DNA of 63,698 nucleotides, filler included, from Klebsormidium nitens (Eukaryota > Plantae > Klebsormidiophyceae), in NCBI GenBank assembly GCA_000708835.1. It is 4 parts of 4 records of this genome, joined end to end, with 100 filler letters (N's around TTAATTAATTAA, not from the genome) between each part and the next. Parts side by side here need not be neighbours in the genome. Positions count along the whole stretch, not along the records: positions 1 to 13,949 come from DF238056.1; 3 more parts are not named here. One strand, 5' to 3'. The first letter of the stretch is position 1. Each line of letters begins with the position of its first letter. The position numbers and the translations under genes are program-made. Below, one piece after another: positions 1-36,729 of the stretch. The notes under the pieces were generated by a model. The model saw nothing but the letters and a program-made list of their open reading frames with translations, was not told the origin of the DNA and ran no database searches.

Positions 1-164
1 CCGATGGTCACCAAGAAATTTTAGCATGGTCACTGAGAATATCTCTCTGGGGCATGTGTCTCTGGATCAGTCAAAAGTCGCCTCCTTCTTATATATAGAA
101 AAAGGGCGATTCTGACTGAATAGGACCCCGCACCTGCTTCGACTAGAATCAACCTCCACCAATT

Positions 165-578
165 ATGTTACTTTTCTACTTCAAGACAATATGCATCATG
201 CAAAAGAGGCGATCGGCAGCTGTCCGATATGTGGACACAGATCGGCCTCAGAATATGCGTCATCTGTTAGATGAAGTCAAATGTTATGATTTGGATTCAG
301 AGCGTCCCGAAATGCTAATCGAACGAGGATTATACATTCAATCAGTCGAAAGTGCGGATCTAAGAAGAGGGGTACTACTGATTCTTGCACGTGCAATGGA
401 TCCGGTGTCCAAGACAACCACTCTAAGATCTCTGTCAAACTTTCTAGATGATGCGATGTGTTCCCCATATAAAGAAGCCGGATACTTGGCGCAAAACGTC
501 AATCTGATCCTATATGTAGCGGAGCAAGTGCTTGATGGTGGCGTCGAACGAGGCTACACAGCAATTATTCAAAAATAA
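165..578 (+). CDS. hypothetical protein (137-aa ORF, convergent with the primase-helicase)
   Basis: Uninterrupted ORF with protein-like composition; no recognisable motif. Confidence 0.35.
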   Translation: MLLFYFKTICIMQKRRSAAVRYVDTDRPQNMRHLLDEVKCYDLDSERPEMLIERGLYIQSVESADLRRGVLLILARAMDPVSKTTTLRSLSNFLDDAMCSPYKEAGYLAQNVNLILYVAEQVLDGGVERGYTAIIQK

Positions 579-675
579 CAAATTTCTGAACGACCTCAAT
601 CTCCAATGAAAGGCTATACATATCCGGTACTTGACTCATCTCAAGAACCTTGCCCATTCTCTTTAGTGGTTCCAG

Positions 676-1278
676 CTAATCTATTTCATCAACTTCCACG
701 AAACAGGTTTTGCTTTTCTTCTCCATCAACCTGTCTCTCAATCCTCCGTAGCGCTCATCGAGGGCTTTCCAATCTCTCATAGGAACGACTTGATGAGAAC
801 CTCGGCGAACACCATGCGAATATTTCGCCAATTGTATCGTAAGTCCTAGCCCGCCTTCCAAGATCATTTTGATCACGTTCCTTTTTTTTGTTGCGGTCAG
901 CTTCTCCCCCACGAAAGAAGTTCGCGGCCTATATAAGGCCTCTAGATTACCGAGAGAGCTTCCAAACTCTCCCATATCAAAGACTTCTAACAGCTTCTCC
1001 TCCCCACCATCTCCACCAACAATCTCAAAGCTCCCAAACACGGCGTTGTTGATCTCTTCAGGAGCTACGCCTGCTAAGGCCGCCAGCACGCACCAAGCAT
1101 AATTAACTCCATTTGCTGGCCTATTTCTCACATCGAGATACTCTTGGACATTTTCCGTTTGTTGCCCTTCGTGGATAGCCATGCTGAGGGTGCCGTTGGT
1201 AGATGCATAAGTGGAAGTGACGAACCTGCAGAAAGCAATATGATTAGCAATTGCCAGCACACTTATGCATCTATCCAA
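676..1278 (-). CDS. probable C-terminal exon of the primase-helicase (origin-binding-protein-like C-terminal region)
   Basis: 200-aa ORF directly downstream of, and co-oriented with, the helicase exons; the domain identity is inferred from position only. Confidence 0.5.
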   Translation of the reverse strand: MDRCISVLAIANHIAFCRFVTSTYASTNGTLSMAIHEGQQTENVQEYLDVRNRPANGVNYAWCVLAALAGVAPEEINNAVFGSFEIVGGDGGEEKLLEVFDMGEFGSSLGNLEALYRPRTSFVGEKLTATKKRNVIKMILEGGLGLTIQLAKYSHGVRRGSHQVVPMRDWKALDERYGGLRDRLMEKKSKTCFVEVDEID

Positions 1279-4200
1279 TCTAGCCTTCTTTCATGCTCAA
1301 TTGCTCTAGAGCCCACCGACTGAACCAAAGCATATTCTTTCCTCGAACTCGCATGCTTCAGCTAGAGTATCTACTGGAACCATGTATTTATATAACAGTC
1401 AATTAGATGCAACTCGAAGGACAAGCATCCAGGCTTCTGTTGCAGATAAAGCGCAAGGACGGCGGCGTATACCTCCACTCAGCATTGGAGAAAGTATCTT
1501 AAGGGTTGGAACAAACCTCTCATAGTTCTCGACTTCATCGTCAGACTCTTGGCATGCATCCCTCGCACATATTTTTCCACGAACTTGCGATCTACATTGT
1601 TGTATTGGATTCCGTAGTCAAAAACGGCCTTGCAGTATATCTCGTACCTGAGAACGTCCTGTTTAGTGACGCCTCCAGAGGGCGAATTCAGCATGCCTTG
1701 AATCTTCTCGAACTGATTCCAAGTTATGAGATGCCTTTTGCGCCACTGGTCAATTGTCTCATCAACGACTTCCTCAGCTGTCCCTAGGACAGACATCGCA
1801 GCCTCTCCCTCTGTCCGCATGCTCAATTGATTCACCACGCTGACCCCTTGCCGCTGAAGATCCTCTGTGACCAGCTCGACATAGTATTGCCGACTTTGCA
1901 GCCGGCCCAACAAATTGTTTGCATACAGGTTGCACGTTGCAGAGGTGCGATCATAAATAGGACGCTCTCCGGGAGCACCCCGCAACATGTCCAGATGATC
2001 CATCGAGACCCCTTGCATCATATCGGCTAATTGCTGATCGCTATCCTCTAACATACGAAACACCTCTTCTTTGGTACTCGGGTAAGCAATTATGCGGCGG
2101 CTGGGGATCTTGCCGTAGAAAATTTGGATATCTCCAGCATCTCTCGCCCTCTGTATCTGCTGCATTAGAACCTGGACGTCGGGATGATGATCGGAGTTAA
2201 TCGCCACCGCAATTACCACATCGTAACTATTCTTTTTCTCAATCGATACACCAGGGCCAATGGTGGGCGTAAATGCAAGGCAATCCGCAATAAGCGCGTC
2301 GTCTGGATTCGAGATTGCGTGCTGCAGCAGCATCTTGTCGGATGTCTCTCGCTTGTCGCCATGAAAAGCAATGAGCTTCTTTTCCGGAAGTCGAACCTTG
2401 AACGCAGCCTCCAGCAGCTCGACGAACATCTTGCTTGTGGCGGGAACCTGGAATGCCGCGACAAGGAAGGTTTGAGTCACGGAATTTTTGAACGACTTCT
2501 AGTAGCTTCTAGGGCTGAGGGCCTCGCCTCACGATCTTGGGCCTCGAGAGTGACAATTCAAAGAGTGCGTAGATCGAGTCGGAACGTGAATGGGAGAAAA
2601 GGAATTCTTGAACCGCGACTGATTCCGAATTTTTGTCCCATTTGTGGCATAGCCTACGCCTGCCATACTTACAGCCCTCGAGCAACAGGAGCAAGAATGC
2701 CTTTGGAGATAAAGTCGGAAGCCAGATGGGAAAAAAAAATATTCCTCAACTATACGTTTTCTCGAATCGCAAGTTTTTTTTGTTCCCGTCTCAACTGATA
2801 TTGAGGGTCTGCTGGGCTTCCAAAGCCCCGGAGCAACAGACGCAAAAATGCCCATATCGAGTCGGAAGGCGAGCGGGGAAAAAAGGGCATTCCTATTATA
2901 TACGTTTTCTTGAATCGCAAAAATTAATTTTTCCCGTCCATCCGAGGCTGAGGGTCTGCCGGACTTGGGGCCTCGACTCTCGAAGCGATCGATGAAGAGG
3001 GCAAAAAATAGAGTCTGAGCTACAAAGATCAGGGAGCTGAGTCTCTCTCGTGAGCTTTGGAACGCAGGAGTGCGGAACAGATCGTCAATCAGTTAAGTCG
3101 AGAGAAGCGATTTCAGTAACGGTGCTCACCATGACACTTTTCTCGGATGCCACAAGGTCTAAAACTCTCTCCACTACCAGAGAGTAGGTCTCCTTGGGCT
3201 GCCGCTTTCCCTCAAGCGGTCCAGGCATGGGCATGATGAAGGCCTTTCGGGTCGAAGGCCAGACGCCGAGATTGCGGATGGTGTAGAAACGGCTCGTGTG
3301 CCGCAGGGTTTGGATCCATTCTACCACGCGGGGGCAGTTCAGATGGGCGTCGCATAGAAACGCCGCTTTTGCGCTAGCAACAATCCCCTCGAGGGCCATA
3401 AAGACCCGCTTCTTGTCCTTCATGACAGTTGACGCCATGTTGGTCAGCGTGAAGTTGACTTCGTCCATGACCACCAGATCGAAGTAAGGCAGTACCCTCG
3501 CTATCGAATTGATACAAACCACCACCCGCCTTGCAGTTATCTTCCCCCCTGCCTCATCGAGGTAGCATACAAAATCTAGCCCGTCCTTCTTGGTCTCTTC
3601 GTGGTATTTTCTAGCCAGGGCGATATTCGAAGCGATCAGACAGACGGAAGCCTCGGCGGGCAATTTGGGCAATAGCCCATGAAAGAGCTCTTTGGACTTC
3701 CCCGCGCCCATGTTGGCCATCACGAGAGTCGTCTGAGGCTCTGCATCACGGCAAAGGTTGGGGACGGGGTACCCGAGCATCCGTCCGACGATGTTGTACT
3801 CGCTGCTCCAGGACACGATACACTCCGCATCCAGTTGCAGGACCCGTTGTAATCGCTCAGTGCTGCTGCCGCCATGTACTGCAGCGCCGCTGTGAATGAA
3901 TAGAGTTGAATGTTTCAAGAGGCCATTTTGAGAGCACGATAAAACACACAAGTTCGGCGCCTCACCGTTTTGCTGATGGACTTTGAGAACCTGCCGCCTA
4001 TCTGTCCATTCCATGCTGAAGCTCAACCGCGCTTGGGCAGAACCTTGTCTTGTGTCGCAGTTCAGTAACTAAACTTTTCCTTGATCGGATCTTGGGGTCT
4101 TGCGGAAGACGAAGCAGAACACGAAAGACCCTTTCAATGTCCTCACCTGCAGGACGTCGAATGGCACCTGTAGAAGGCCCTGGATGGCGAGCGCCTGCTG

Positions 4201-7110
4201 TACACCAGGTAACCGCACGCGTTCCCCGGAGACGAGTGCGCTCGCCCCGCTATCCAGCAGAAGGGGGTGTTGACTCCGAAGTGCACCGTGAAGACGTCCT
4301 CGCCCATGGCTTCAGCTCGGAGGATCCAGGCGCCTGGATGGTCCCTCTGGTACCTTCGCAGCAAGCGGTCTTTCTCCACATTCGTCAGAGGGTGTTGCAC
4401 GTGAGCTCTCTCCACAAATGTTCCCCTGAGCCCTCGTGCTGGAACCCTCGCAGGGTGCTGAGAGACGGATGCCGCAGGTTCCGCCCGCTGGTTGTAAGCC
4501 GCCAGCAGGTCGCCGTCGAGTTCCGAGGCCGCTGCTCTGTCTGCTGGACTGTGAAAGCCGATCAAGTGGTCCGCAATGTCGCGAGAGCTCCCGACTGTTG
4601 GCGCGAGAGGACGGCCCGACCCCTTCTTTTCGGAGTAAAGGGTGCGCCAGTTCTGAAACGAGCTATAAACGGTTGTGTCGATGAGGCACTTCTCGACAAA
4701 GACTCCTTCCTTATTGTCTTGGAAGAAGAGGAATTCGCAGCTCCGCCGCAGCTGCTTCGGGGGGTTTTTAAGGAAAAGAGCCAGGGCTTTCTTCAACTCG
4801 ACTCGGGTGGACGAGTCCTTCAGACAGAAGCCTTGCAGGCAGACATGGGCGCTGAACTTATACCCTCCGTTTTTGTGCTTCCCATGGGCGGTCGCAACCT
4901 GAAAGGCAATTGCTTCCGAGGGGACCTTGAGGACCTGCTCGAGGAAGCCACGCAGCACAATGTCGCAATGTTCGAAACGTTCTTGGAAATCTCCTTCGTC
5001 CCGGCCCCTTGTTGAATAGTCGATGTCAACATAAAACTTCGAAGAGGTATGCGCGTCGATGCATTCGTAGTGATTCAGGACGATACCCTCTGCCCGCAGC
5101 CTTTCCAAATAACCCACGAAGACGCCAGCGTTCGCAAAGCTCGAAAACTTCTTATGCCCCCCGGAGGAATACAAGTCACAGGATCCAATCAGAGCGTGCT
5201 CTTGTGCTTGCTGGTGCACAACGGCTGGTGCCTTCTTGTGGAACCAGAGCTGGCCGAGGAAGTCTTCGTCCAAAGGATGATGCTGCAGACATACAAGAGA
5301 TGCTGTCAGATATGCAGGCCCGGAGAGCGAGTCATTGGTAGTATCTGGCCCCAGAGTGATAAACGAATGACTAAACCGCATAGCGCAGATCGACATGGGA
5401 AAAAAAAGCTTTTATAACCTATATACTTTCTGAATCTGGAAAGCTTTTTATTCCCGATGCATTGGGCTTTAGATGCGGGCATTCTTGGGGCCCGAGAGCG
5501 ATCCTGGGCACCCAAATGACGAGTTCTCATGAGCCCAAGTTTCGAGCCGTCCCCACCATCCTACTTCGTTCCGATCTGCAGAACTGCTTACGTGGTTACT
5601 ACCATCAGCCACATTAGCCAAGCTATTCCATCCCCGGAGGTGAAAGTGTGCCTTCTGCTTTTCGGGCCGCAGCAAGAGCTCACATGTTCGAAGGAGAAGC
5701 AAGGCTCTTCTTCCTGCTTCCGCTTCACGCCCCTTTGGCTCGGCAACAACATGGCGCTCGTGCTATCAGGAGGTGCCTGAGGGAATTGGTGGGTATGTCA
5801 GATGTTGCTGACGGCATCGTCTGAGAATTACAACTCGAGAGCGAATTCAACAGGCCATTCTGGACTCAAGAAGTGCAAGGCATATGAGGGCTTGGAACTG
5901 CCACGTGGCACTTTTTGCTGGTCGAAAATGCTCGGTGCGCCCCTAACTGAAGCTCTAATTCAAAGGCACGCAAGCTGTCCTACTAGCCTCGACGTACGTG
6001 CATGCAAGCTGGTTGACATGGTACCTTGACTTGCCTGCTGCAAGGAGTTGCCGTCCCTCGTGACAGTGGCAGCAGGATTCATGAGTTCCTCGCTGGCATC
6101 GAGGGAGGCGTTGGAGTCAGAGCGCTCTTCTCTAGCAAGGGTAGGCGGGATGTTGGTGCTGAACTCGTGAAAGGGGGATCCGGCGTCAAAGGCTCGGCTG
6201 ACAATGGGGCCCTGGCAAGAGGGGGACTCGTTTAATCCGTGCCACTGATGATCTAGCGAATGAATGAATGGCTGTTGCAAGGCAGGCAGCACCGACCCTA
6301 AGCCCCAGAGGGGGCGGGAAAAAACAACTTTCGCGATTCAAGAAAACGTACAGATAAGGGGATTTTTTTTACCCCCATCTGCCTTCCGACTCAATCTATG
6401 CATTGTTGTATCTCAGCGCTCCAGGGCCCCTGTAGAAGGCCGTGGGTATCATGTATTGATACTGGAAAGCATCACAGGGGCAGCATCGCCTACCGAGAGC
6501 ACATCAGTCAAGCGCTGCATATAAAAGACCGGCAAATGCATCTGCTGAGAATTTTTCTTCGAAATGGAGCAACCTGCGGGTTGGGATTAGAGATGCACTC
6601 TACTCTCAGCAACGGGTCCAAGAAAAACGCTCACCTCCATCCACACTTCTGTCACTCTCGAGTTCCCATCACCGCTCTCCACGTGCTTCTCACTGACCCT
6701 TGGGCCCGTTTGCGATAGAGGCGGGACCAAGGCTGACGCTGATTTCGAGCTGCCCACCGCTTTGAATGAGGGCCCTGGATTGCTCTCGATGCCTCCAATC
6801 ATCAGGAAAGTGGCTGCAGAGTTTGAAAAGACGACCTTGCGATTGGGTAGGCAGCCATATGGAACAACTCGGATATCTCAGATCAAAGCTAACAAAACCG
6901 TGTGCAGGGCGTGTGCATCACGTGCACGCACTGAGAACAACGTCCAGGTCTCCACTTGTAAGGAATTTGAATCCCTTACCTAGAAGTTCATGGCTCAACG
7001 GCTTTGATGGAGAAAGCGCTGCTTTGGAGCTGGCCTGATCCCAAACCGCACAAGCGAAAAGAGTCAACGCAAAGCTTGGAGACTTTACCACTGTTTCGAA
7101 AAGGCTCTGC
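676..7110 (-). CDS. spliced AEP primase-Zn knuckle-UL9-like SF2 helicase fusion gene (virus-like replication protein) with N-terminal 2A-like motif; 5' exon structure partly unresolved
   Basis: Four collinear minus-strand ORFs joined by GT-AG introns. ATG|GTGAGC at 3130 splices to CAG|GTTCCC at 2447, giving SVM-VPATSKMFVELLE. TGC AG|GTGAGG at about 4147 splices in frame to an AG near 4050. Candidate 5' exons lie at 5684-5776, about 6040-6250, 6630-6813 and 6980 upward. One phase (5684 to 5344) and the 1479-to-1278 junction are not resolved. Confidence 0.7.
1479..2447 (-). CDS. UL9-like SF2 helicase, C-terminal RecA domain exon
   Basis: Motifs PATSK, IAFHGD, FTPTIGPGVSI (motif V) and MQQIQRAR (motif VI); acceptor CAG at 2448-2450. 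Confidence 0.8.
   Translation of the reverse strand, partial: VPATSKMFVELLEAAFKVRLPEKKLIAFHGDKRETSDKMLLQHAISNPDDALIADCLAFTPTIGPGVSIEKKNSYDVVIAVAINSDHHPDVQVLMQQIQRARDAGDIQIFYGKIPSRRIIAYPSTKEEVFRMLEDSDQQLADMMQGVSMDHLDMLRGAPGERPIYDRTSATCNLYANNLLGRLQSRQYYVELVTEDLQRQGVSVVNQLSMRTEGEAAMSVLGTAEEVVDETIDQWRKRHLITWNQFEKIQGMLNSPSGGVTKQDVLRYEIYCKAVFDYGIQYNNVDRKFVEKYVRGMHAKSLTMKSRTMRGLFQPLRYFLQC
2576..2936 (+). repeat. three degenerate copies (2576-2639, 2713-2788, 2859-2936) of a ~75-bp repeat in the helicase intron
   Basis: Shared pattern GAGTCGGAAG..GGG(A)n..TATACGTTTTCTYGAATCGC..(T)nCCCG; the first copy is the most degenerate. Confidence 0.8.
3130..4050 (-). CDS. UL9-like (Herpes_ori_bp-type) SF2 helicase, N-terminal RecA domain exon
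   Basis: Walker A ANMGAGKS, motif Ia LIASNIALA, Walker B DLVVMDEV and motif III LCDAHL. Confidence 0.85.
4143..5396 (-). CDS. archaeo-eukaryotic primase (PrimPol/UL52-type) with C-H-C-C Zn knuckle
   Basis: AEP motif I FYVDID, motif II KFSAHV and motif III IDTTVYSSFQNWRTLYSEK; Zn knuckle CWIAGRAH...FYRCHSTSC. Confidence 0.9.
   Translation of the reverse strand: MSICAMRFSHSFITLGPDTTNDSLSGPAYLTASLVCLQHHPLDEDFLGQLWFHKKAPAVVHQQAQEHALIGSCDLYSSGGHKKFSSFANAGVFVGYLERLRAEGIVLNHYECIDAHTSSKFYVDIDYSTRGRDEGDFQERFEHCDIVLRGFLEQVLKVPSEAIAFQVATAHGKHKNGGYKFSAHVCLQGFCLKDSSTRVELKKALALFLKNPPKQLRRSCEFLFFQDNKEGVFVEKCLIDTTVYSSFQNWRTLYSEKKGSGRPLAPTVGSSRDIADHLIGFHSPADRAAASELDGDLLAAYNQRAEPAASVSQHPARVPARGLRGTFVERAHVQHPLTNVEKDRLLRRYQRDHPGAWILRAEAMGEDVFTVHFGVNTPFCWIAGRAHSSPGNACGYLVYSRRSPSRAFYRCHSTSCR
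5387..5456 (+). repeat. degenerate copy of the same ~75-bp repeat
   Basis: GGGAAAAAAAA..TATATACTTTCTGAATC..TTTTTATTCCCG. Confidence 0.6.
6315..6392 (-). repeat. inverted copy of the same ~75-bp repeat
   Basis: The reverse complement reads GAGTCGGAAGGCAGATGGGG..TGTACGTTTTCTTGAATCGCGAAAGTTGTTTTTTCCCG. Confidence 0.8.
6770..6813 (-). other. 2A/StopGo-like motif (A)TFLMIGGIESNPGP
   Basis: Direct translation; the exon begins after CTGCAG (6814-6816). The upstream donor CTAG|GTAAGG at 6980 gives SHELLATFLMIGGIESNPGP in frame. Confidence 0.65.
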
Positions 7111-7456
7111 CAGAGTCATGCTATCAGCTGCACAAGAGTGGACTTCTAGCATGTAGTAAAAGGCTGACTGTTCCTTTGAGGTCCGGGTCGAGTCCTCCGG
7201 AGCATTTTGCATCCCAGCGGGAATAGGAAAGTTGGTAATGAGGATTTTGAGTAGGAGTTTTGGATTTTATAGGCCCGCAGACGGGCAGCTCCTGCGGTCC
7301 GGTCCGGTCCCGATGCCACGTACAAGCTCCGAAAGGCCATAATATACAGTGGACTGATCCAGACACTAGAAGGTGGCAAAGACTACCAAGTCGGACCGAA
7401 ATAAGCTGCAACGTACCTACACGAGGGATTGGACCGGAGCACCGGACCGTGAGTGC

Positions 7457-7604
7457 ACCCCGAAGTTAGCGGATCGGTTCGGGCCCCGGGTGTTTTACCG
7501 GACCAATTCCGGGGCGACCGTAGCGCGGCGCGGCAGCGCGTTTCGCCAATTGGGGGCGACGCGTGGCACAATGTGGTTGGTCCTTTTATGCCGTTCAACA
7601 GATG
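7457..7604 (+). repeat. ~148-bp direct repeat, copy 1
   Basis: ACCCCGAAGTTAGCGG...GCGTGGCACAATGTGGTTGG...CCGTTCAACAGATG, matching 13793-13941. Confidence 0.9.
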
Positions 7605-8375
7605 CCTTGGACGTCGAAGAATAAACGGATTGCAATTAGCTGGGAGTCTGAGACGTTGACACTTAACACCGAACGGATGAGATTTGCGCGGTTGTCTGAG
7701 AGGGCAGATGAGATACAAAGGTACTAATGCGATCAGCATGTTCTTCGTCTTGTAGAGTTTGAAAACGTGAGCAGTTAGATAAGTGTGAGCTTACGACGAG
7801 GCAAAGAGCCAATCGAATCGTGTCGCATGAGAGGAGGGGGCAGACTGCAGCGTACTACTTGGCACGAGAAAAAGGTAGCACATGTGGGCATTTGCTGAAC
7901 CAGAGGATGGAGCAAGTTCTGACCCACAGTGACTGCTGCAAGTTCTGGAACGTTCCAACCCGTTGCACCAACTCAGCACTATCTGTATTCTTGTCGTGTG
8001 GAATTGTATCCAAATTCCTGACCCTGTTTTGGCATCCAAATCTGCGGGTTCCTTGTAGCAATAAGCATGCATGTGCCAGAGCCAATCTTCATCTCTCAAC
8101 ACACCAATCTTTCTAAGAGCTCACATCTGAGACTTGGTCTGCTGATAGCCAGCTCTTTCAAACCCCCAAACTCTACGCGTTCGCACCGCTTTCGCGGCTC
8201 TCTCCGGACCCGACGCGCTAGTCGTGGGGCGCAGCAATTGAAAGCCGGCTTTGCAGCACCTTTTGGGGGACGTCAACCAGCTCGTTTTCGTAGAGTCGGA
8301 AAGAATAGAAACGGAAAGAACAGGTGGAGCTGGGGCTCAAGAAGGCTTCACACTTCTCCGTCAAATGGATAAATT

Positions 8376-8965
8376 TTGTCTAAAGGAGCTGAGCACTTTT
8401 TACCACGTTCGAGGTACGGAGACTACTTTCGAGATACAATAATTTGCGCTTTTAGCTCGTTGTTGTCCGTGACAGAATATGTTGACCATTTAGTAAGTAA
8501 CAAAAAGGGCATCCTCAAAGCCCTCATCCCCAAAGCTAACGAAGCGAACCCTGCGTAAGGAGGAGAGGGAAAGATAAATGGTGGGAAATTTTTGATGCTT
8601 CAAAAGGCGAAAATTGAACTAAAGCGACGCGCAGGAGGAGCAGCCAGGCTTTAGGGCAGGCCACACCGTTACCAATGCGGAGGGAGGTCGAGGCAGATGG
8701 GAGACCGGCAGCTGTGAAAGAGAGGCCACCCGAGCTTCCGTTGAGATCGGATCGTCAGGAGAACAGAGAGGTGCGAACACATACTCGAGAAATTGCGCGC
8801 ACCCACGGAGAAGGATCCCCCGAGACGGTGGGGATTCGGAGAGAGCGAGTTGCAAAAAAGGTGCATCAGCTGGCGCGACTCGTGGAAGAGAGCACATGAC
8901 GAGCATATCAAGCCGTTCGGCAAATCCGCCCACAACGGCCATCTTGATCTAAGTAAAAAGCAGAG
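8376..8965 (+). pseudogene. degenerate ORF with possible Myb/SANT (trihelix)-like segment
   Basis: Stop-interrupted reading frame ...CEHILEKLRAPTEKDPPRRWGFGESELQKRCISWRDSWKRAHD; the resemblance to Myb/SANT-like helices is weak. Confidence 0.25.
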
Positions 8966-9808
8966 TACGGGACGGTTACTGTCTTGTCGTACTGGCCATC
9001 CGCGTCGTTTCGACTTGCAAGCTAATATGATATTGTACTTTGCAGTCCGGACTCTGGGTCAACAGTCATGGTCCTTTGACCCCTAGTTCCAAGCCCTCTT
9101 TGCGTTGATTCAGCAGCCAAGACGGCGGCATACCCCCATGTGTTACTAAGTTAGGGTTTGCTTTTTGCACGAATAAAAGAAAGCCAGACAGAAACTTCGA
9201 GTGCCGTGCATGGAATATATTGGCCTGCATACATGGCGTATGTTTGCATGGGTTGCAATCTCTGGCAACTAGATAGATCGCGGCACACCCTTGTGAGGGA
9301 GATGTGAATCTGCACGAAAGTAGGCAGGCTCTGGAGTGGCCAATAAGCCCATTCCCTACAGGCTCATGCAGAGGTATCCAGAAGATACCACTAGCTTAGG
9401 CCACAATCTTCATATAAGACTCAGAGGCGTTGTGAAATCTGCTTTGCCTCACTCTTTCGAGGAAACATATCATCATCCAAGCGAAGAGGAGAAGCATTCA
9501 CTTGCTTATTCTAGCTCACAATTTTGGCATGCAAGTGACACTCTCCAGATTACATGGCAAGCGATGACACAGTCACGGTCGAGTCTCCTGATTTGAGATG
9601 GAAAAAAGCTGCTCACGTATTTCAGGTCCACTTTCGATTGCGCTCTCAGTTTAAGATATGTTTTGAGTAGAGCTCTTGACTAATTGGAGGAGCGCTATTA
9701 GTCTCACTGCGCTTTGACAACTAAGATGAGACATTTGAGCGATATGCGTACGACAATCTGAAACGACTCTGATCTCGAGAGCATCACATGCCCACTGCCA
9801 CTACCATA

Positions 9809-12800
9809 TCAGGGCAGCGCCCACTTTTGCGCCGCATAGAAGGACTCCACCACATGCCACAAGTTCTGCTCCTTCAAAACGGGGGCCATCTCCAGCAGAT
9901 ACCCCTGAAGGGCGGCTGCCATGTAGTTACCGGGCCAGGTTGCGGACGGTACAGACTGCAGGATGGGAAGGACGCCTTCGACATAGGCGCAGGCCCAATG
10001 CGGCTCCGTGACTCTGTGGAAATAGTTGAAGTTCGCCTCAGCTTCGCTGCACAACCGTGGCTCATCAAAGTTTGCGCAGATGTGAGTGCCATACAGAAGC
10101 AGTGGCCGATCCCCAAGCTTTCCAACTGAAGCCCCCGACGCGCCCGGCGTCGTTGATGCTCGGATCTTCCCTAGCTCCTCAGAGTGCGCAATTGGATCCC
10201 CCACGCTCACGGACACGGTGTCTGCAGATCAGGACACAACCCGTCAGCTTACCATCAAGACTGTATGGTCGCAATGAAAAGATCCACGACATCCCAATAA
10301 ATGGTAGGGCTGAGGGATTGACAACGAGCTTTCATCGTTACTTGTGTCCACGCTTCATTCCCTCTTTCGTGTCCTCCAACGAGAAATCGGTGCATGAAAA
10401 CTGAGACTTCAGTTTCTCGTAACCATCTCTGGCCACTGAGAAATTCAACCAACTCCACCACTGCCGAACGGAGCAAGTCCTTGTGGTAAGCAATGATGCA
10501 AAAGAAAGATTCACAGCAACAAGAGCCAATGCATATAGGTGCATAGGTCTAATTTGGGCAGCATACCCTTGTCTTCGTGCTCTGCAAATCGTGCACAGCT
10601 TCAGCGCACCTTCACAGAAGTGCATACGTTCAGTGGTCCTGAAAATAATTCTGCTGATAGGTATACACATAGAAACAAACGCTCCTAGGCAAAGTCTTCG
10701 TTGCTAACGGCCTAGTAATTGACTTACCGGGGCACAGGACTTCCGTATTCATTTGGTAGGCGAGGAGCTTCTCCCGCCCCTTCGGGACCTTGTAAGTCGC
10801 ATTGATAGCGCCCTCCCTGACTGCCCCTGCAATTTACACAGAAGCAAAAAGTCGTATTCCCTGAGGAGCATACACTAGCGAGCTGTTATCCTGATGTACA
10901 AGTGACGATTCGATAATGCACAAGGTGCGTGAAGTCCTGACCCCTCGCAGACCCCGCAGCAGAAGACTGGTGCTCTTGGATGCTCTAAGGCACAGCCCTT
11001 CATATTTATGGAGCAGCTTGATGTCTTCCAGTCCCTGAGAAAACAATCCATCCTTCAATCACCCAATCAGGCGATTTCATAAGATGAATCTCGGTTGCAT
11101 TGAAGGTGTAGATGAGTCACACAGAGATATTCAGGCCCAGTCAGCACTGATCGGGGCTCACTATCACATGTATGTCAAAGTCAACAAGCTATAAATTGAC
11201 ATCATGGGCAGAACTGCATAGAGCGGGAGTGCAGAAAGAAAAAGGTTCATTGTTAATCTTTCCAAAGTGCTGCCAGCAAGCCTGTGATAACAGGACTCCA
11301 GTCTCCTGAGCATCTTTAAACCACAATGAAGCAGTTCCTGTCACTCACCCGGCACTTGAAGAACATAGTAGGTCTGCCCCGGCACCGGCTCTTCTGCAGT
11401 TGGAACATACCACCACTGGTTCGTGTGCTTGCGGTCATTGGTGTAGGGGAAAGGCTGGTTTGTGAAGGGGCTGCATTCTGCCCGGATGACACCTATCAAG
11501 AAGTCTAGACTATGGGGCCGACCAGAACTTGCGGTCTCCTTCACCCCGGAGTAGACGCGGGACCGGCTTCTACCAGCCACATCTGGTGAGACGTAGCTGG
11601 TAGCTCGGCCGGGTCTTGTCGGAACCTCGTTGCGCGCAAGGATCTCCACTCCGGTCTTCCACGCCCTTGAGGAGGTCATGGGCCCAACTGAGGAGCGGGC
11701 AGTAACTGATGGAATCTGTTCCAAGTAGCAAGGAAGTTGGAATTGAGAACAAATAAATCCAACTCCTTCAACTTGCTGCCAATGATCCATGAAGGTCTTC
11801 TTGCTTTAACTACACAGACAAATTGCAGAAACATCTATCCACCAGTAGTCTGTCCATTGTCAAAAGCAAGGCTGCAGCCGTTTGCTGCACCTATAAATGC
11901 CAGCCCCAATGGTTTCCCATATCTACAGCTGTATACACATTTCTCGGCAGCCTGACCCCGTTGTCTTTGGTGAATCCTCCCAAAACTAGGAGGTGAATGC
12001 ATATGATAGAGGTTGTGATCAGCAACTGAGAAGCACAGAAAGAGACCGTGAAGCACAGAAAGAGACCAAGAAGCATAGCCAGTGCTCTGATGATAACCCT
12101 TCCTGAATGGCAATGCAAAAGCAACCCTTCAGTGCCCTTCTCTTTTGTGCTTCCAAAGTTTCCTTTACCAGCTTAGATCCACCTCTCCTGGTGAAGCACT
12201 TGAGCAGTGTGACCAACACCAACTCGACTGGCGCCATCTCAGATAGCTCTGACTAAAACAGTTATCATAACCTCCGTCCCTTGAGCCTGCCCAAACTAGT
12301 CTTGTGTTGCTTCATAAATTCTCCTCACGAGAATACCTTGGAAGGTAAGGCAGATCCTCAATTGTGTTGGCAAGCGCTGGCTGTAGGACTTACCCCTGTG
12401 CCTTCCGCGATGGCATGCCCTGCCGATCCAAAGGCCACTACGTGATAAGAGCGGGGGCTGAGGACTGACGCATCCTGCTTAACCTTAGCCGCAAGCGTGT
12501 TCACATGTGCATCCAGCTCTGCTGTTCGACAAACAGGCGGGGACAACATGTATGCTGTCGCGCGGCCGCCGGTCCCATCTCTTAGTGGCAGAACCTGCGC
12601 CCCATTGAAACGCAGCCGCTCGGCATGCAGCAGCTGCTCGTCGGCAGGCAGGTCATTGCTGCAAAAAGGACCAAAGAATTACACATCAGATGACATGTTG
12701 CCGGCAAGAAGAACAAAAACACCGAGGTCAACATCACCAGCTATCCATGAACAAAACCTCATCCATGAACAAGACCTCATTTATAACACAGCATCCAATT

Positions 12801-13180
12801 GAGCAAGCGCGATGGACACAAAGGACACCTGTATCCAATTAGTGATATACGCCCTAGAAACCTCAGACCATTGTGTCTCACTTCAAACCAAGATCACTGA
12901 AAGGGACGAGAAGACCCATGGTGTGAACTCACTCAAAGACGAAAGGAGCGGCTGTGGCAAGTTGGAAGTCTTCATCGAGCGGCCAGATCTTCTTAAAGTC
13001 CTTCACTTCGTGCGTCCACTTCCCTTCCTGACGGATAAGTCGCTCCTGCGACGGGGCCTCGTCCATGGCAATTCCCAGCAGACAGCGAGGAGTAGCGGGC
13101 ACAGAGGTGCTCTGCTCGAAATTGCTCAGCCACGTTGCTCGCAGGGACTTTCTACTGTGTGGCTTGGACGCTCCTGAACA
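9809..13180 (-). CDS. orphan multi-exon gene, unknown function
   Basis: Three exons (ending 11349; about 10829-10728; about 10222-9809) splice in frame through canonical phase-1 GT-AG introns. Further exon-like segments lie at about 12000-12250, 12395-12660 and 12920-13180. Confidence 0.6.
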
Positions 13181-13792
13181 CCAACGAACGTTCTCATGGT
13201 TATGGTCAGGGGAGCAGGGACCTGGCAGGGAGCAGCGACCTGGCAGGGAGCACCTGAAGTTCGCCGCTACATATACCGTAGTCCAAGGTAATGAGTCCGA
13301 ATAAATAAATAATTATTTGCATTCGGAAAGTCAGAAATTCAGCTTTCCCGTTCGGAAAGTTCAAATTCGGAAAAGTAAAATAATCCCGAAATGGTCCTCG
13401 GAAGGCGAGAAACTGCCAAAATAGGCCTCAAATTTCTTTTTCAAGTGCAAACATAGGGCATTCGGATTCTGGTCGGAATCTGCATTAATAATTGCGCATT
13501 CCTGGTCGGATTGTTGGAAAATATTACTGGGAAAATCCGTTCGGAATCATCACGTTGGACTACGGTACCTTTGCACACCAGTTGGCGCGTCGAATATCCA
13601 CCCAACCCATGGCCCGGCCAATTTCCCTGCAGCATACGCGATGAACCATAAGGAGCTGGAAATACCATAAGGTTTCGAGCTTCACCCTTACCGCGCAGCG
13701 GCAGACCGTTTCCGTGCATTCCCTTGACTTGAAGTCCCAGCCTAGATCCTAGCATTCTCGACATTCCTAACAGCAACTGTGGGCACCTACAA

Positions 13793-13941
13793 ACCCCGAA
13801 GTTAGCGGGTCGGTTCGGGCCTCGGGTGTTTTACCGGACCGATTTCGGGGCGACCGAAGCGCGGCGCGGCAGCGCCTTTGGGGGAAAGGGGGGGACGCGT
13901 GGCACAATGTGGTTGGTTCTTTTTATGCCGTTCAACAGATG
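13793..13941 (+). repeat. ~148-bp direct repeat, copy 2
   Basis: Matches 7457-7604; abuts a scaffold gap. Confidence 0.9.
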
Positions 13942-13949
13942 GTTAGTTG

Positions 13950-14049
13950 NNNNNNNNNNNNNNNNNNNNNNNNNNNNNNNNNNNNNNNNNNNNTTAATTA
14001 ATTAANNNNNNNNNNNNNNNNNNNNNNNNNNNNNNNNNNNNNNNNNNNN
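13950..14049. other. scaffold gap with TTAATTAATTAA spacer
   Basis: N run with a central six-frame stop spacer. Confidence 0.95.
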
Positions 14050-17066: not shown

Positions 17067-17110
17067 ACATGCTCCTGCTTCGCGGGAATGTGGAGTCAAA
17101 TCCTGGACCG
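17067..17110 (+). other. 2A/StopGo-like motif (D)MLLLRGNVESNPGP
   Basis: Direct translation; the exon begins after GGCAG at 17066. Candidate upstream donor TCAG|GTCAGG at 16960 (phase 1). Confidence 0.7.
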
Positions 17111-20572: not shown

Positions 20573-22563
20573 AGGAATGTTCCTGACCTCTCACCAGTTC
20601 TGCCTCCGCGGCGATGATGCTCGGAGTATCGACTTGCCTGATCTGTACTCGAAAACGTACCGGCATGTCGGGCCGGACGTCCCTTTGTACGTGGGCGGCG
20701 TGAGCTACTCGGGGAAGACCAACAAAGTGAGAGCTTATACTTGAGTGCCCGAGGCTGAGTGGCTGAAAATTTGTCATGCTTCTCGGAAAAGATCGAAGAT
20801 TCCTAAACCGTTGAGTCGTCTATGTTTTCTGGAACAAGTAGACTCTTGAAATGCACGCGAACAGTTGCGAGAACGGTCTAGGAACTCTTTGGAAAGATCC
20901 TGTGACCCGACACTGTTGCCCAACCCTTTCATCGCAGAACGGGCGTCTGGAGTACTTCGGTGGCATCCGCCACATGCAGGTCGAACAGTGTGCGGTTGGG
21001 GCGGTCGCCATGCAGCTTTTTCAGACGTTCCATTTGTTGGGTGCCGATGCCCCTGACTTCAGCAGCAGGGAAAGCTGGTGGGTACTTCTTCGATCTGATG
21101 CACTCATTGTGCTTCGCCAATTTTGCTCACTGTCGATCACGAGCAAGCTTTTGTACCTTCAAAGAACAGCCGCTTCTAGAGCCGGTTACAACGTAGTAGA
21201 TATGATATTCTGTCTTTTGGAAGAAGAATCTTGACGTCGAAGACCGATAAGGCCCAAGGTTACGAGTTTAGGCCGTGACGTTTTGCAATTTGACAAAGCA
21301 TCATCCTTCAGAAGGAAAGCATAATCCTTCAGGAGTTGGGTTCCCGCTCTTTCTGGCTAGCTTGCCGTTGTACGGGCTTTATCGCAGATTTGCTCACTCG
21401 GTTCTGAGGTTTTTCGCAGGTACAACTTGCGTCCTCTCTTCTACGAAAATGATGACGTCAGCAGGAACGTCACGTACAATACGCAGCTCAAGCACTTCAA
21501 GCAGGCGTACGGCGAGCAGGAGATTGTATCCAGCAAGCTTACGCATGCGCCGCGCGGCGCATCAGTGCGGCATGCTGAGAATAACGGGTGAGCATTCACA
21601 CCATTCGGGACTTTTCGAAAAAAATGTTACCTCGTCAGAATGTCAATTTCAAGCTCAAGCTGCCCCGCAACCCGATAACCGGTCGCACTTGCGTGTTGCT
21701 CTGGATGCACGGGCAGAGGAGTGTCAAGAGTGCAAGGTCGTCAGTCCAAACTGAGTTCTTGAGGGCGTGCTTCTCGTCAGCCAAAGCCAAACCTTCGAGC
21801 ATGACTGACACCACAAGTCTGCAATGATGTTTGGGGTCCCGCCGAGATGATCTCGGGAAGGCGTTAATTACAGGGCTCTCGACCAAAGATTACTGATCAA
21901 TCGTCTCCATAATTTCTCTGCAGCGGCAAAGAAGCTGAGAGTGCTCGGCTCGGCCGTTGGATCTACGATCACTTCCGGACTTCGTACCTGCACCAACTTC
22001 CAGTCGGGATTATGCTTGTCCAGGCGGGATTCAAGGACGACCGCAAAGGGTACTTTTTCCCACGTGGTCGGGTGCTCCCCTCAGAGGACGAGTACCCGGG
22101 TTTGGCGAAGCAGATCTTTCCCTGGGCCGACGAGGAGCTGCGGAAGGTGAAGCAGGTATGTTCCTTGATACTTGTTGGAAGACTTTTGATGGGTTCCAAA
22201 ATGAATCGCCATTGGACATCAGTGCACGTGTACAATGATCTTGCTGCAGTTCCGCTTCCTCGGAAATATAACCCACTGATATTTCTTCTAGCGAGCATTC
22301 AATCTTCATTTGCAGAGGAACCTAACAGGGCCAGCCAGTCAGCGCGACATCGCCGCGCAAAAGTTCCTGGAGCTGCTCATCGAGTTGCGGGCGGTGCTGC
22401 TGCAAGACGTGGCACTCCTCCAGCGGATGGGGAGATACGAGGACCATCCAATCATCTACCACCACTTCTTCGAGGGGGAGGAGTGGGACAGGTTCTGCGA
22501 CGCTGTAGAAGCGGTGTGCAACGCGCCTGCTCCTCCTCCCGAGCTCGCAAACATCCCCCCGGA
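20573..22563 (+). CDS. tyrosine recombinase catalytic core exons (Crypton/NDC10 type)
   Basis: Five exons (about 20573-20733, 20940-21079, 21421-21588, 21924-22156 and 22316-22563) splice in frame and carry R, HxxR, W and Y. Confidence 0.9.
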
Positions 22564-23802
22564 GGTGAGTAGAGTAAGCGCATCAAGTTTCGCTTTGCTT
22601 GGTGGAACAAGATGTCAAGCATGAACTTCGTTTCCTGTTTCGAAAGGTGGGCGCTTAGTTTCAGTCTTCTTGATGACAAAGCGCGCTTATGCAGGTCTTC
22701 GGCTGTCTTCAAAAGCCAATCCGGTACTTTAAGCAGTGATGTCCTGATTGAAAACCATAAAGAGTCACGTTTCACATCCGCCGAACATGCTCCCATTTTT
22801 TACTTTACCAAACATGACTCCTTGCACTAAAGATTAGACCCCAGCCCATTGCTACATCGCCAGCCAGCTCTCTATCGGCAACCAGGATCTCTCGGACCTC
22901 AGCATAAAATGAGATGAATTCAAATGCGCGAGCCAGCTTAGCACGAAGCCGAAACTATTTTTCGATGAAGCCCGCTTGTCTTTGCAGGTGGTTGCCGTGT
23001 TGCAAGATCAGCAGGTGCAGCTTGCGCGCATCGAGCGCGAGTCGCAAGCCTCAAGGGAGCGCGAGCAGGCCCTGCAGGGCCAGATGTCCGCCGTGCTGCG
23101 CGTGCTCGAGCGGCTTGTATGCGCGTTTTCAGGCGCAGACGAGCAGCCAGCGTCGCCGGCCCCGTCGGCCAGACCCGCTGCACATTCGCCAGTAACCCCC
23201 GAGCCTCGGCGGACGACCACAGGGTTTTTTGCCCGCCCTCCGTCGGCGCCTGTCGCGGCCGCTGCAGAAGCGGCTCTTCGAGCCGCTGCTGTGGCAGCAC
23301 GAGCGGCGGCGGCAACACACGCTGACGCCGAACAAGCCAGTACTCCCCCTCAGAATGAAAGCGGGTCAACGGGTGACGTGGCATCCAGACGTGCGACTGA
23401 AGCGGGCTCCCTCTCCGCCGACAACGACGAGATGGATCTTGAGCCAGGTCGGGCATCTTTCGATCCTTTTGCAATTGATTTTCGTCTTCTTTTCGGAGTC
23501 AAGTGCTGGGCGGGAAAAAGTGTCCGTCGATTGGAGCCGCAATAAGGGCAGCTCGTCGAAGCCGTTTGAGAAGGCCTCTGATCGGGGAATCGTTCCGATT
23601 GCGCATTAGCTAAAAGGCTTCAAAGGAATTTGAGACTTTCCGAGCTCATTCGTCTTTCTCGAAAAGATTAAACGCCCTCGTCAATCGAACGCGAAGCGCC
23701 AGGATGCGGACGAAGTGAAGGTACAGGGACCGGATAACCGGCCGATTCTCATACGATTCCAGGAAGGAGCTCAAATTGTGACTTCTTTGCCCACAGATTT
23801 AG

Positions 23803-25574
23803 GATCCTTTTCTCGTCCGTCGTCGGCTCCTCTCGCGGCCGCGGCTGAAGCAGCTCTCAAAGCCGCTGCCGAAGCAACACAGGCGGCACCTGCGGCTCAC
23901 GCGGCAGTTGGTGGGGCCAGCACGCAGAATCAGGACGCGCTGAGCGACCAGTGTGATCACGAGACACGTGGTCCAAAGACAAGATCCTGGATTACGGAGA
24001 CCGTCGGGGAAACCGTGGAGCCCGAGACAGGTAAAGCGAACTGAACCACGCATACAAGTAGATTTTATACTGGTCAGGTCGATTCGTTTTGCAGGTTCGT
24101 TTGGCCGCCCAAGTGCAACGAGGTGCTGCCGGTATCTTTTTAGACAAGGGATTCGAGAGGCTGCAGTAGTCCTGGACTCCCAGTTGCCGTTGTTAACTAG
24201 GATGATTTTGTTCTGAGCCACCGTTCTAACCTAAGGACTCCACGCACATGTGCTGGTCACTCACCCAGAAAGCTGCACAAGGTCAGGATGGTAGCGGATG
24301 TATCGGACGCAGAAAGAGTCTTTGACATTTGCTTCAGGTCCGGATTCCTTTATCCCTGGGTGTCCGTCGGCTCCTTCAGTTGCGGGCGCTGAGGAGGCGG
24401 CAGTGAGAGCAAGTGCTGCAGCCGCAGCGCAAAATGCTGACGCGCGACCTGCCGAAGCCCACGTGACGAGCCCGGAGCAGGACGTAGGCTTTAACCCCGC
24501 ACAAGCTGAAGGGCTGACTTCACAAGGCGCGACGGTTAGAGAGGAGACGGCTGGAGAAGGTTAGTTGTTTGTTTCATTCGTCAGTGTCCTTCAATAGGGT
24601 CCTTCCGAGCGAACGGTCAAATATGGAATGATGCTGATCGCGGCAAAGAACGGCGCACCTTACTGCTGCCCTTTTCGTGAGTACTCCCTTGCTTGAACCA
24701 GGCTGTTTTCAAACCTACTCAGTGCGTATGTCAAGGCAGTGTTACCCTGCCCTCACTAAACCACGGTGAGGGCTAGTTTCGGCCTCGATGCAAGCTGCGG
24801 ACTGACTGAGCTTTCTTGATGAAGTTGCTTAGACGGTCGAAACACTTGTCAAGCTTCTCGAGTGGACGCCCAAACGCAAGAAAGTGCAACAACAGTTCTT
24901 TGTTGTTTGGAAACACCTTTGGAATCTCGCTTTCTTATGATCCTGCCTCTAAGGTATAGACGGAAGTGTCGAGCGTTACAAAGCACGAGATGCGTCGATC
25001 TCGGACATCCTCAAATCCAAATCCGACTAAGAGGAATCCGTAGGATGAGATCTGACGTCGTGCTTTCATGTGAGCAGGTTTGCATGAGTCGGGGATGTCC
25101 GAGATGTTCCAACAGTGCAGGACTGCCTGATTGCAAGCGATTTCAGCTTCCTCATCAGGTCAAAATGCGTGGAAGAAAGTAAAGCTTTGTGCTCAATTCG
25201 TTCAGTCACGGTAGGACAGGTCGAAGCCGCTTGTCACCTTCAGCGCAAAGCAAAAGGGTTACTTTGCGTTAAGAGTGCATTGACGGGCCGGTATTCAAGT
25301 GCTTCTGAGACGTGGCTAACTTGAGTAACTTGAGTTGAACCGTTGAATTTCTTGTCTCTAGGTATGGACTACGTTTCCCGTCCTTCGTCGGCTCCTGTCG
25401 CGGCCGCGGTTGAGGCGGCCCTCAGAGCCGCTGCCGAAGCAGCTCAATCTGCTGCCGCGCACGCTGCAGCCGACGCGGCCGTCACCCAGGATCCGGACGC
25501 GTTGAGCGGCCAGGACGACAACGAGGCACGTGATCCCCAGACAACCGCCCGGAAGACGGTTCAGCCAGAGACAA
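23803..25574 (+). repeat. three tandemly duplicated phase-1/phase-1 Ala-rich exons (23803-24030, 24338-24559, 25362-25574)
   Basis: RPSSAPLAAAAEAALKAAAE / CPSAPSVAGAEEAAVRASA / RPSSAPVAAAVEAALRAAAE, paralogous to RPPSAPVAAAAEAALRAAA in exon 22988-23447. Confidence 0.8.
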
Positions 25575-26025
25575 GTGAGGGCGAACTTGAAGCATGTGTA
25601 GTATCACTGGTCGCCGTCAGTCTGCAGCAACGCTTACCTTGGTATAAGGTCTAAAGAGAGTTTCGATCTTGCCGATGTGGCTGACCGTCGCATCTGATGA
25701 TTGAGAGTCTTGCCTCAGTCATCCTTGCCATTTGTCGAGCAGATTTTGCAATCGTCCTGAATAGGTCTCAGATTACTTGAGAATGAGGTTCTGCCCAACA
25801 AATTCGTCAGGATGGGTCCGCTACTTCGTATCAGACGACCGAAAGATTCTCATCATGAAAGTGTCTGTCGGTTTTAAGATCTTAGTTATCTGTGTTGAAT
25901 TATTGAGGTACTTCCGCTAGAACGTAAGCCTTAGATTTTTGTGATGCAGGGGGTCCTTCTGAGACATGTTTATTATAACAAAGTCGGCACTCCCTCAACT
26001 TGACGCTCTTTTCTCCATTGATCAG

Positions 26026-26840
26026 GTCTGGGCGAAGGGCTCGACTTCGGAGCTTTTGAGCAGGCGACCGACAAGACGACCGTTCAGGAGGGTGGAATAG
26101 AGACGGAGGAAGCGACCGGGGAGGGCTGCCGGCAGCCTCATTCGGAAGTGGAAGGTGCGGAACAGAGTGGGAACTGTCCAGAGGGCCATCGAACAGGACC
26201 AGGGGAAAGCGAGGGGGGCGGGGAGAGTGGGACGACTTCACAACCTTGCTCGGAAGGAAACGATAGAGAAGACTCGGGGAGGGAAGCGGGAGCTTTTAGA
26301 GGCTTTGGAACAGCAAGCCAAGGCGATGCCGGGGCTAGCCCAAGTGGCTCGGGAAGTGTCGATTTAGGGGCTGCCGATGAGGGAACAATAGAAGATGCTT
26401 CGGTAGTCCCCGAGTGGGCTTTAAATTATATGATCGGGAGAAACTACACTTCGGTTGCAGAGGTCTGGCAAGAATGGGCCTACGGACAAGAGGGGTGCCC
26501 CATGTCTTTGAGACGGATGGAGGAGCTGTGGGGTACTCGCTGGAGAAGAGGACGGGAAAATGAAAGCAAACGTCTCTCGAAGTTCCGCAAGATTATAAGT
26601 TTGGTAGAGATCGTGTTGAGGCAGAGCAATGTAGGTGAGGCTGCAGCAGTGCAAGCCGTTGAGAATAGCATGATTGCATGCGGCATAGATCCGGCGCAGC
26701 CATGGAAGTATTGTGAGTTGCTTCGAGAGTCAAAGGTTGGCAATCGTGATGAACAAGATGAGCCCAAGCGGACAGGAAAACGCCGGAAGATATCAAGTCA
26801 GTCGGAGTCGAACAGGAAACGCCAAAAGTCCTCAGCTTGA
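26026..26840 (+). CDS. terminal exon of the Crypton gene with GCR1_C DNA-binding domain
   Basis: IGRNYTSVAEVWQEWAYG..SLRRMEELWGTRWRR..KRLSKFRKIISLVE; acceptor at 26025 is in frame. Confidence 0.9.
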
Positions 26841-29741: not shown

Positions 29742-29841
29742 NNNNNNNNNNNNNNNNNNNNNNNNNNNNNNNNNNNNNNNNNNNNTTAATTAATTAANNN
29801 NNNNNNNNNNNNNNNNNNNNNNNNNNNNNNNNNNNNNNNNN
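29742..29841. other. scaffold gap with TTAATTAATTAA spacer
   Basis: N run. Confidence 0.95.
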
Positions 29842-29854
29842 TAGCGCCGTTACA

Positions 29855-31371: not shown

Positions 31372-32420
31372 GCACGTTGAGAAAGAGTCAACATCCGCAT
31401 GTCTGCACGAAACTGATCGTCTGGCACCAGATACTGCGTGGTCGGCAGTTTCTCAATTGCTGGAGCGCCTCCACCTGGTTCAAAATCGGGAACGGAGCGG
31501 AATTCCGGCGGAATAGCGGATTCTGGCGTATCATCTTGTACTACTGACGGATGCTGCTGAAAGTCCGGTTCCACTACGTCATCTCGAGAATCAGTAGCGT
31601 CAAACACTGCACGCAAATGTTCATCATCTTCTGCTGCCCACGCATTTGCCTGTCGCTCTACAGCATCCCAGTCGACACCAGCGTTGTACTCGTAAGCAGC
31701 TACTTTTTCTTCCACAGTGTGTTCCACTTGCTTATAACGATCTTCGAAACTGCTGTTCCCAGACAGAAGGATACAACTGTCCTCTTGTTCATTCAGGAGA
31801 ATAACGTCATCTGAAGAGAAAGACCATGGGTAGAATTTAACGAGCAGTCTTTCGCGGTAGAAGAGTTCCGAATCTTCGGCTAACTTGTAACCGACAATAT
31901 GAAGGATCTTGGTCTTTCGCCTCTTTTTGAAGATTCTCGAACCACGACCGCCGCTGGCCTTACCGTCCACAGGATCTCCTCTGACGTTGGAAAGCTGGTC
32001 ATCGTTCGTCTCCTCGGGCGCAGCAGCAAAAGTAGACGAGGGCTCATACCACGTCGCGAACTCCGCGAGCGTAAGCTCAGCAGTGTCCAGCGGGCTGGGA
32101 TTCTGCAATCTGATAGCATATTTGTCGATAATGTTAGAAGCAATACAGTCTGTAGAATCTCGGGATAGACACTGTAATGCTTGATCGCTCTTGATTAGAA
32201 AAGTGCGCTGTGAAGGCGGCGACGACGGAACGAAAATATGTTCCCGAGATCTCCATCGTAACGGCAGTCCCAGACAGCCGTACACAGCCTGTTGAGCCGA
32301 GACTTCTTGACCACGAAGCAAAGCAGTGCCTGCGTGTCTAATCGTACGCCTGACATCCATATTACCTCTCCGCGCTTCTGCGTAGGCCTGATCCATAAGC
32401 TTGCTTAACCTGTAATCCGT

Positions 32421-36629: not shown

Positions 36630-36729
36630 NNNNNNNNNNNNNNNNNNNNNNNNNNNNNNNNNNNNNNNNNNNNTTAATTAATTAANNNNNNNNNNNNNNN
36701 NNNNNNNNNNNNNNNNNNNNNNNNNNNNN
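36630..36729. other. scaffold gap with TTAATTAATTAA spacer
   Basis: N run. Confidence 0.95.

Follow-up and report, generated by a model that had tools for sequence, protein, structure and literature searches.

Locus and transcript of KFL_011070010

We identified a spliced gene encoding an archaeo-eukaryotic primase (AEP) fused to a superfamily 2 (SF2) helicase of the UL9 type in a window of 63,698 nucleotides from the alga Klebsormidium nitens. The gene lies within positions 1-13949, which are one scaffold, and its primase exon is 100% identical to that of the K. nitens locus KFL_011070010 on a 13,949-base contig. The scaffold starts approximately 500 bases downstream of the gene, and the flank on that side lies beyond the scaffold. 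Linkers of 100 bases (Ns around a stop-codon spacer) at 13950-14049, 29742-29841 and 36630-36729 join separate scaffolds, so the later pieces of the window are not necessarily neighbours of the gene. A preliminary description, made from the sequence alone, regarded the gene as a virus-type enzyme transcribed and spliced in the nucleus, and this is borne out by the RNA contigs, structure matches and helicase tree described below.

The exon structure is based on contigs from eight runs (six coded studies, plus a run with no study assigned). These runs, none of them annotated as RNA, are taken as such because the contigs skip GT-AG introns and leave positions 1-465 without cover; such contigs are no proof of a single molecule, of strand or of level. 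The exons are listed with the joint leading to the next exon, together with two features that fall within them:

6980..7381, minus strand: exon 1, to the limit of the RNA contigs; its last ~35 codons match the leader of the paralogue KFL_004310010; joint 6980/6813 in 7/8 runs
6635..6813, minus strand: exon 2, which carries the 2A-like motif; joint 6635/6211 in 7/8 runs
6770..6802, minus strand: 2A-like ribosome-skipping motif of the GxExNPGP type, with a Met encoded by the first in-frame ATG
6035..6211, minus strand: exon 3, low-complexity linker, from RNA contigs, followed by the GC-AG intron; joint 6035/5776 in 8/8 runs
5684..5776, minus strand: exon 4, linker; joint 5684/5282 in 8/8 runs
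4147..5282, minus strand: exon 5, AEP motifs I-III and a C-H-C-C zinc knuckle (4259-4149), from alignment and model; joint 4147/3889 in 7/8 runs
3130..3889, minus strand: exon 6, domain 1 of the UL9-type SF2 helicase, with Walker A at 3708-3694 and the DE motif at 3468-3454, from Pfam and RNA contigs; joint 3130/2447 in 8/8 runs
1517..2447, minus strand: exon 7, helicase domain 2 (TPTIGPG 2273-2250, QxxxRxR 2162-2142) and the start of the C-terminal region; joint 1517/1225 in 4/8 runs
1524..1536, minus strand: frameshift relative to the paralogues, also present in RNA contigs, which cross it without a gap in 4/8 runs
505..1225, minus strand: exon 8, conserved C-terminal domain, out of frame here; 49-64% identity to paralogues

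Six of the seven introns are GT-AG, as expected from the earlier proposal of canonical spliceosomal introns, and the seventh is GC-AG. The junction proposed at 3130/2447 is found in every run, whereas the acceptor placed at ~4050 for the donor at 4147 is in fact at 3889. Primase and helicase form one reading frame of 1169 open codons through the joints, and the primase exon and both helicase exons are spanned by single contigs in four of the eight runs, from four studies; the separate primase and helicase transcripts that would have spoken against a fusion did not appear. An in-frame skip of 225 nt (about 2171-2397) within helicase domain 2 occurs in a single run.

Each exon is open, as the preliminary description had noted, but the spliced mRNA changes frame at the lesion near 1524-1536, as seen by alignment with all five K. 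nitens paralogues tested. It ends at a stop at 1130-1128 instead of the conserved-frame stop at 678-676, and the last 186 conserved residues are thus replaced. The gap-free contigs place this lesion in the transcript, so that it is no assembly error. Programmed frameshifting at 1530 was considered and rejected, as there is no slippery heptamer. The complete C-terminal region is not kept in this copy; the models of KFL_001380210, KFL_002040040 and KFL_005960040 read through.

The 5' end is also altered. Exon 1 contains six upstream AUGs, none of which lies in the main frame once the stop before 7115 is passed, and no in-frame ATG precedes the 2A-like motif in the KFL_011070010 transcript. The ~35 codons upstream of the motif match the paralogue leader with an E-value of 1e-6 (1-kb search), and the upstream half of the leader is undetectable in this copy. 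Translation would begin with the motif's internal Met, giving 1120 residues with intact catalytic cores. In HSV-1 UL9, residues 1-535 retain helicase activity and the C-terminal part serves origin binding and dimerization (PMC12543377); by analogy, loss of the last 186 conserved residues has probably cost this copy its recognition of a site or origin. KFL_011070010 is a transcribed and spliced, but frameshifted, copy without a leader start.

Domains and relatives of the gene family

The AEP motifs, described earlier as complete, are located at 5033-5019 (YVDID), 4856-4842 (FSAHV) and 4682-4665 (IDTTVY). Residues S144, H146 and D202 are invariant in an alignment of 90 sequences, and conservation is at least 90% for D86 and D88 as well as for the zinc ligands C342, H349, C373 and C378, in agreement with the zinc knuckle proposed at the outset. 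The model built from the 90 sequences predicts an AEP fold with a confidence score (pLDDT) of 90.1, compared with 42 for the single-sequence model. Its top PDB match is human PrimPol (E 1.5e-10, 16-17% identity), and it also matches complexes of poxvirus D5 and of UL52 from herpes simplex virus (HSV). Among viral models, it matches pithovirus primases, the Bodo saltans virus origin-binding protein (E 2.1e-15) and F1055L of African swine fever virus (ASFV; E 2.4e-13). The helicase matches the Pfam family Herpes_ori_bp (E 1.2e-13), and the family profile matches solved UL9 with an E-value of 3e-44, restricted to UL9 residues 71-404. The searches suggested in the preliminary description thus recovered the AEP by structure and the helicase by profile; the primase-helicase has no match to Pfam Herpes_UL52. 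The AEP exon alone finds nothing in Pfam, PHROGs or PDB sequences; there is no match in phages and no Rfam family. The fold, motifs, zinc knuckle and UL9-type helicase of this N-terminal-AEP fusion are confirmed.

We identified at least ten named K. nitens loci of this family (11 gene models on 9 scaffolds), in addition to K. subtile transcripts, which gives a lower bound for the copy number that the preliminary description proposed to check. The count, from protein records, is a minimum, since 30 of 150 listed matches were identified and the adjacent KFL_005100070 and KFL_005100080 are counted as one. KFL_001380210 (2047 aa) appears to be full length and consists of a leader, 2A-like motif, long linker, AEP, knuckle, UL9 helicase and C-terminal region. 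KFL_010630010 (P0198) has the family's leader and falls in its AEP clade, but carries a D5-type helicase in place of the UL9-type one. Broken and partial copies also occur. The family comprises several deep sub-lineages, some of which hold copies that are 93–94% identical on separate contigs.

Among 38 proteins, those without gene names being assigned to the family on similarity, the catalytic residues are retained in nearly all members that cover the site (D86 in 32/33, D88 in 30/33, H146 in 30/31 and D202 in 24/26), at 30-78% identity to KFL_011070010. The four zinc ligands are kept in 17/18, 17/18, 17/17 and 17/17 members. The selection proposed earlier is supported by this for the family but not for KFL_011070010, given its frameshift and missing leader start.

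The introns are also a family trait. Eight of 11 short open reading frames (ORFs) covering the zinc knuckle stop one residue past the last Cys, like exon 5, down to 36% identity, and helicase ORFs (37-88% identity) read into 'VS' at the next donor in the same column. Intron positions common to such divergent members indicate that the introns are old. Because the copies keep their introns, they would have spread as DNA rather than via mRNA.

The predicted ribosome-skipping motif in exon 2 has a GxExNPGP core after a hydrophobic upstream stretch. Its chance expectation over the six frames of the window is 0.0002, for a pattern picked after the motif had been sighted. It is equally placed in 5 of the 11 gene models (three intact and two degenerate) and absent from the outside homologues among 215 proteins. 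Another transcript shares just the 35 motif-coding bases, in 3/4 runs, and the leader has no usable match in the ESM Atlas. Peptides of this type, with GxExNPGP as the recognised core, are common in retrotransposon ORFs (10.64898/2026.06.17.732966). Like those of non-LTR (long terminal repeat) retrotransposons, the KFL_011070010 motif follows a leucine-rich stretch near the N-terminus; unlike them, the motif in this family precedes a DNA primase-helicase. The words 'helicase' and 'Klebsormidium' have no occurrence in the main text of that report, whose peptide tables might list these peptides. A second 2A-like motif occurs at ~17090-17110 (plus strand), on another scaffold piece and in a broken frame.

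A library search returned 317 matches at E <=0.001, and outside the family most of those listed are proteins of 1000-1300 residues with 24-34% identity. One protein of this outside group is encoded on a contig of 548 kb that also bears nucleocytoplasmic large DNA virus (NCLDV) genes for capsid, PolB and RNA polymerase, and a second sits on a 234-kb contig. Profile-profile comparison with virus-type AEP-UL9 proteins shows collinearity across 839 columns (probability 100). Relatives at a greater distance are encoded on four contigs of giant-virus metagenome-assembled genomes, next to the capsid gene of a virophage and in the setting of a T4-like phage. The region L018:706-11728 carries a Sputnik-type virophage capsid gene and an A32-like ATPase beside a distant SF2 relative of the family helicase. 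No Klebsormidium-type gene is among the matches listed in five viral-contig scans and two metagenome scans, which are insensitive.

The Klebsormidium family is monophyletic in the AEP tree (28 rows, support 100), in the helicase tree (7 named loci, support 99, with 56 of 150 rows chosen) and in a shorter helicase tree (19 rows, support 94). The gene is thus nested in a multi-copy monophyletic family and not in the ordinary single-copy cellular family that the preliminary description had named as the contrary outcome. Its sister is the protein P0037, joined in the AEP tree by P0143, and the next group is the giant-virus one, with support of 92 in the helicase tree and weakly (64) in the AEP tree. 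These comparisons make a viral origin of the family likely. A similar cluster in the ESM Atlas is 59% eukaryotic, mostly Mucoromycota, and nuclear expansions of such genes may not be restricted to K. nitens.

The AEP-UL9 fusion itself is not new. It is known in mimivirus R8, ASFV pF1055L, ostreid herpesvirus 1 (OsHV-1) and yaraviruses, where SF2 and superfamily 3 (SF3) helicases are described as mutually exclusive, and a swap between the two is described for mriyaviruses (10.1101/2024.02.29.582850). The family shares with this R8/F1055L/OsHV-1/yaravirus-mriyavirus type an N-terminal AEP with intact motifs, a UL9-like SF2 helicase and the interchange of SF2 and SF3 helicases. It differs in being nuclear, with seven introns, at least ten loci, a 2A-like leader and a long linker, and no capsid or HUH gene is seen near KFL_011070010. 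HSV-1 UL9 has SF2 helicase domains similar by profile but no primase, and the origin-binding domain at its C-terminus (residues 536-851; PMC12543377) has no sequence match in the family. Polinton-like viruses carry AEP-SF3 fusions (PMC11161782, PMC10120064), and resemble the family in being integrated and multi-copy, with a primase-helicase replacing a polymerase; KFL_010630010 has their AEP-D5 layout. In contrast to them, the family has introns, and the scaffold yielded neither terminal repeats nor a gene for a capsid, ATPase or integrase.

Surroundings of the gene and other parts of the window

The neighbouring upstream gene (9812-13066, minus strand) is spliced from five exons, encodes ~425 codons and has a long 3' untranslated region to about 7417. 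Its 3' end falls just before the primase-helicase transcript, on the same strand. A direct repeat of 149 bp (90% identical) is found at 7457-7604 and 13793-13941, each copy 5' of one minus-strand gene. An element resembling a miniature inverted-repeat transposable element lies at 13274-13567; it has 28-bp inverted ends, and diverged copies are present in RNA contigs. An open frame of 143 codons at 147-575 (plus strand) has no family and is mostly without RNA cover. No packaging ATPase or other viral core gene was recognised in positions 1-13949.

A repeat of ~105 bp occurs five times in three introns of the primase-helicase gene and nowhere else in the window:

2559..2947, plus strand: three copies (2559-2647, 2691-2799 and 2842-2947)
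5362..5468, plus strand: fourth copy
6303..6409, minus strand: fifth copy, in the opposite orientation

As candidate origins these repeats are unsupported, since one of the five folds better than shuffled sequences (z -3.6; others -0.1 to -1.5). A translated search for them in the intron read-throughs of paralogues gave nothing significant.

The other scaffolds carry remnants of different elements. The region 21913-26837 (plus strand) has a GCR1_C domain (E 8e-13), a weak NDC10_II match (E 0.07) and three related stretches of ~110 bp, and may be a Crypton-like remnant. A broken Helitron (Helitron_like_N, DUF6570 and PIF1) lies at 29789-35632 (minus strand), after an ORF with a weak AP2 match. 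Any tie between the Helitron or Crypton-like pieces and the primase-helicase gene was rejected, as the artificial linkers intervene. The last piece of the window (39193-39801, 51106-53337, 58874-59494 and 62448-63698) contains host-type LysM, WD40 and PHD genes and a retrotransposon gag fragment.

A selfish element, viral insertions or a host gene family

The preliminary description left open whether the gene is the replication module of a self-synthesizing mobile element or a domesticated viral gene. That the family is multi-copy and partly decayed speaks more for a selfish element than for one domesticated gene; that the element is self-synthesizing is unproven, with no integrase, polymerase or terminal repeat found. 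On balance, and with somewhat more confidence than doubt, we regard the family as the replication gene of an old, intron-bearing, virus-derived selfish DNA element in the nucleus, of which KFL_011070010 is a decaying copy. The element would be mobile.

Under this reading, ribosomes translating an intact copy such as KFL_001380210 would first synthesize the leader, with its Cys/His and coiled-coil parts. At the 2A-like motif they would leave out the Gly-Pro bond, and the primase-helicase would emerge as a separate protein headed by a long disordered linker. If UL9 is taken as the analogue, the C-terminal region may then attach to a site within the element, which the helicase would unwind; primers made by the AEP would be elongated by host polymerases, and copies would spread as DNA.

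Several observations weigh against a selfish element. The 13.9-kb scaffold contains no recognisable gene for a transposase, integrase, polymerase or capsid protein, and neither terminal inverted repeats nor a target-site duplication were found in it. No insertion site, occupied or vacant, was seen, and the ~425-codon upstream gene has no Pfam or PHROG family. Splicing is clean in up to 8/8 runs and a K. subtile transcript falls in one 90% cluster with KFL_002040040, both of which also fit a host gene. The near-identical copies may be alleles of other strains. Six of the 11 gene models have no 2A-like motif, although these models are perhaps incomplete, and ribosome skipping is a prediction. 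Likeness to UL9 in sequence stops near residue 415, so C-terminal origin binding is argued by analogy only. In the shorter helicase tree the family is not beside the giant-virus group, and the trees are midpoint-rooted, without named viruses or PrimPol and without an AU (approximately unbiased) test.

Alternatively, the copies may be remains of repeated integrations by DNA viruses from a single lineage that replicates in the nucleus (giant, mriyavirus-like or polinton-like), their own gene having already had the introns and 2A leader; the copies would be immobile within the genome. NCLDV core genes are reported in K. nitens (PMC5294986), contigs of giant viruses carry homologues, a more distant one adjoins a virophage capsid gene, and mriyaviruses show the same helicase swap. 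However, no viral hallmark gene was recognised in the 13.9-kb scaffold, the listed matches of the five insensitive viral-contig scans lack the Klebsormidium-type gene, and endogenous polinton-like viruses are described as intronless (PMC10120064). We consider this explanation rather improbable.

It is also unlikely that a domesticated viral gene gave rise to a host gene family, acting for example in repriming or in chromosome-end upkeep in the way of the yeast Y' helicases, with KFL_011070010 a pseudogene in the making. Such a family would account for the old shared introns, the conserved catalytic residues, the splicing in eight runs and the K. subtile transcript. Two copies are numbered beside conserved host genes among the rows listed in Supplementary Data 8 of PMC4052687. 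In the same rows, the copy falls outside the gene-number span of conserved genes on all five scaffolds with listed genes, a weak observation, as one of these has a single listed gene and four other scaffolds have none; it counts for the selfish element as well, and would weakly fit a position toward scaffold ends, in repeat-rich or subtelomeric regions. The broken and partial copies argue against a host family, as do the lack of a telomere-like array in the window and the 2A-like leader and helicase swap, both of which characterise genes of mobile elements or viruses.

An ordinary cellular PrimPol paralogue that gained its helicase in the alga is very improbable: human PrimPol is the best solved-structure match of the AEP, and human PrimPol and herpesvirus UL52 share its fold and C-x6-H...C-x4-C zinc knuckle, the spacing of PrimPol, but PrimPol has no helicase and identity to it is only 16-17%, the family is fused and multi-copy where cellular PrimPol is a stand-alone AEP and zinc knuckle at a single conserved locus, it is collinear with virus-type AEP-UL9 proteins, and the fusion already exists in viruses (10.1101/2024.02.29.582850).

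The enzyme of the selfish element that we favour is of a known viral type. As a variant that is spliced and multi-copy, with a 2A-like leader and a swap of helicases, we did not find it in print. No description of the family was found in the literature, with subscription journals and repeat databases outside the scope. We suggest, tentatively and with more doubt than belief, that it represents a new class of eukaryotic DNA elements of streptophyte algae that have introns and lack a capsid, and that copy themselves by a virus-derived primase-helicase, 2A-released from a conserved leader protein, with UL9- and D5-type helicases swapped between sub-families.

Virus-derived genes of K. nitens are reported to be enriched for repressive methylation (PMC12344493). 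By comparison, this family has acquired introns as well as a 2A-like leader, its active sites are conserved over deep divergence, and it has multiplied and is spliced. If mobile, the family would extend the known copying modes of eukaryotic DNA elements by one that uses a primase-helicase; if domesticated, it would stand as a second system of the PrimPol type, equipped with its own helicase. In both cases, an alga in culture supplies an expressed member of the R8/F1055L family for biochemistry, together with a 2A-like motif in a DNA replication gene.

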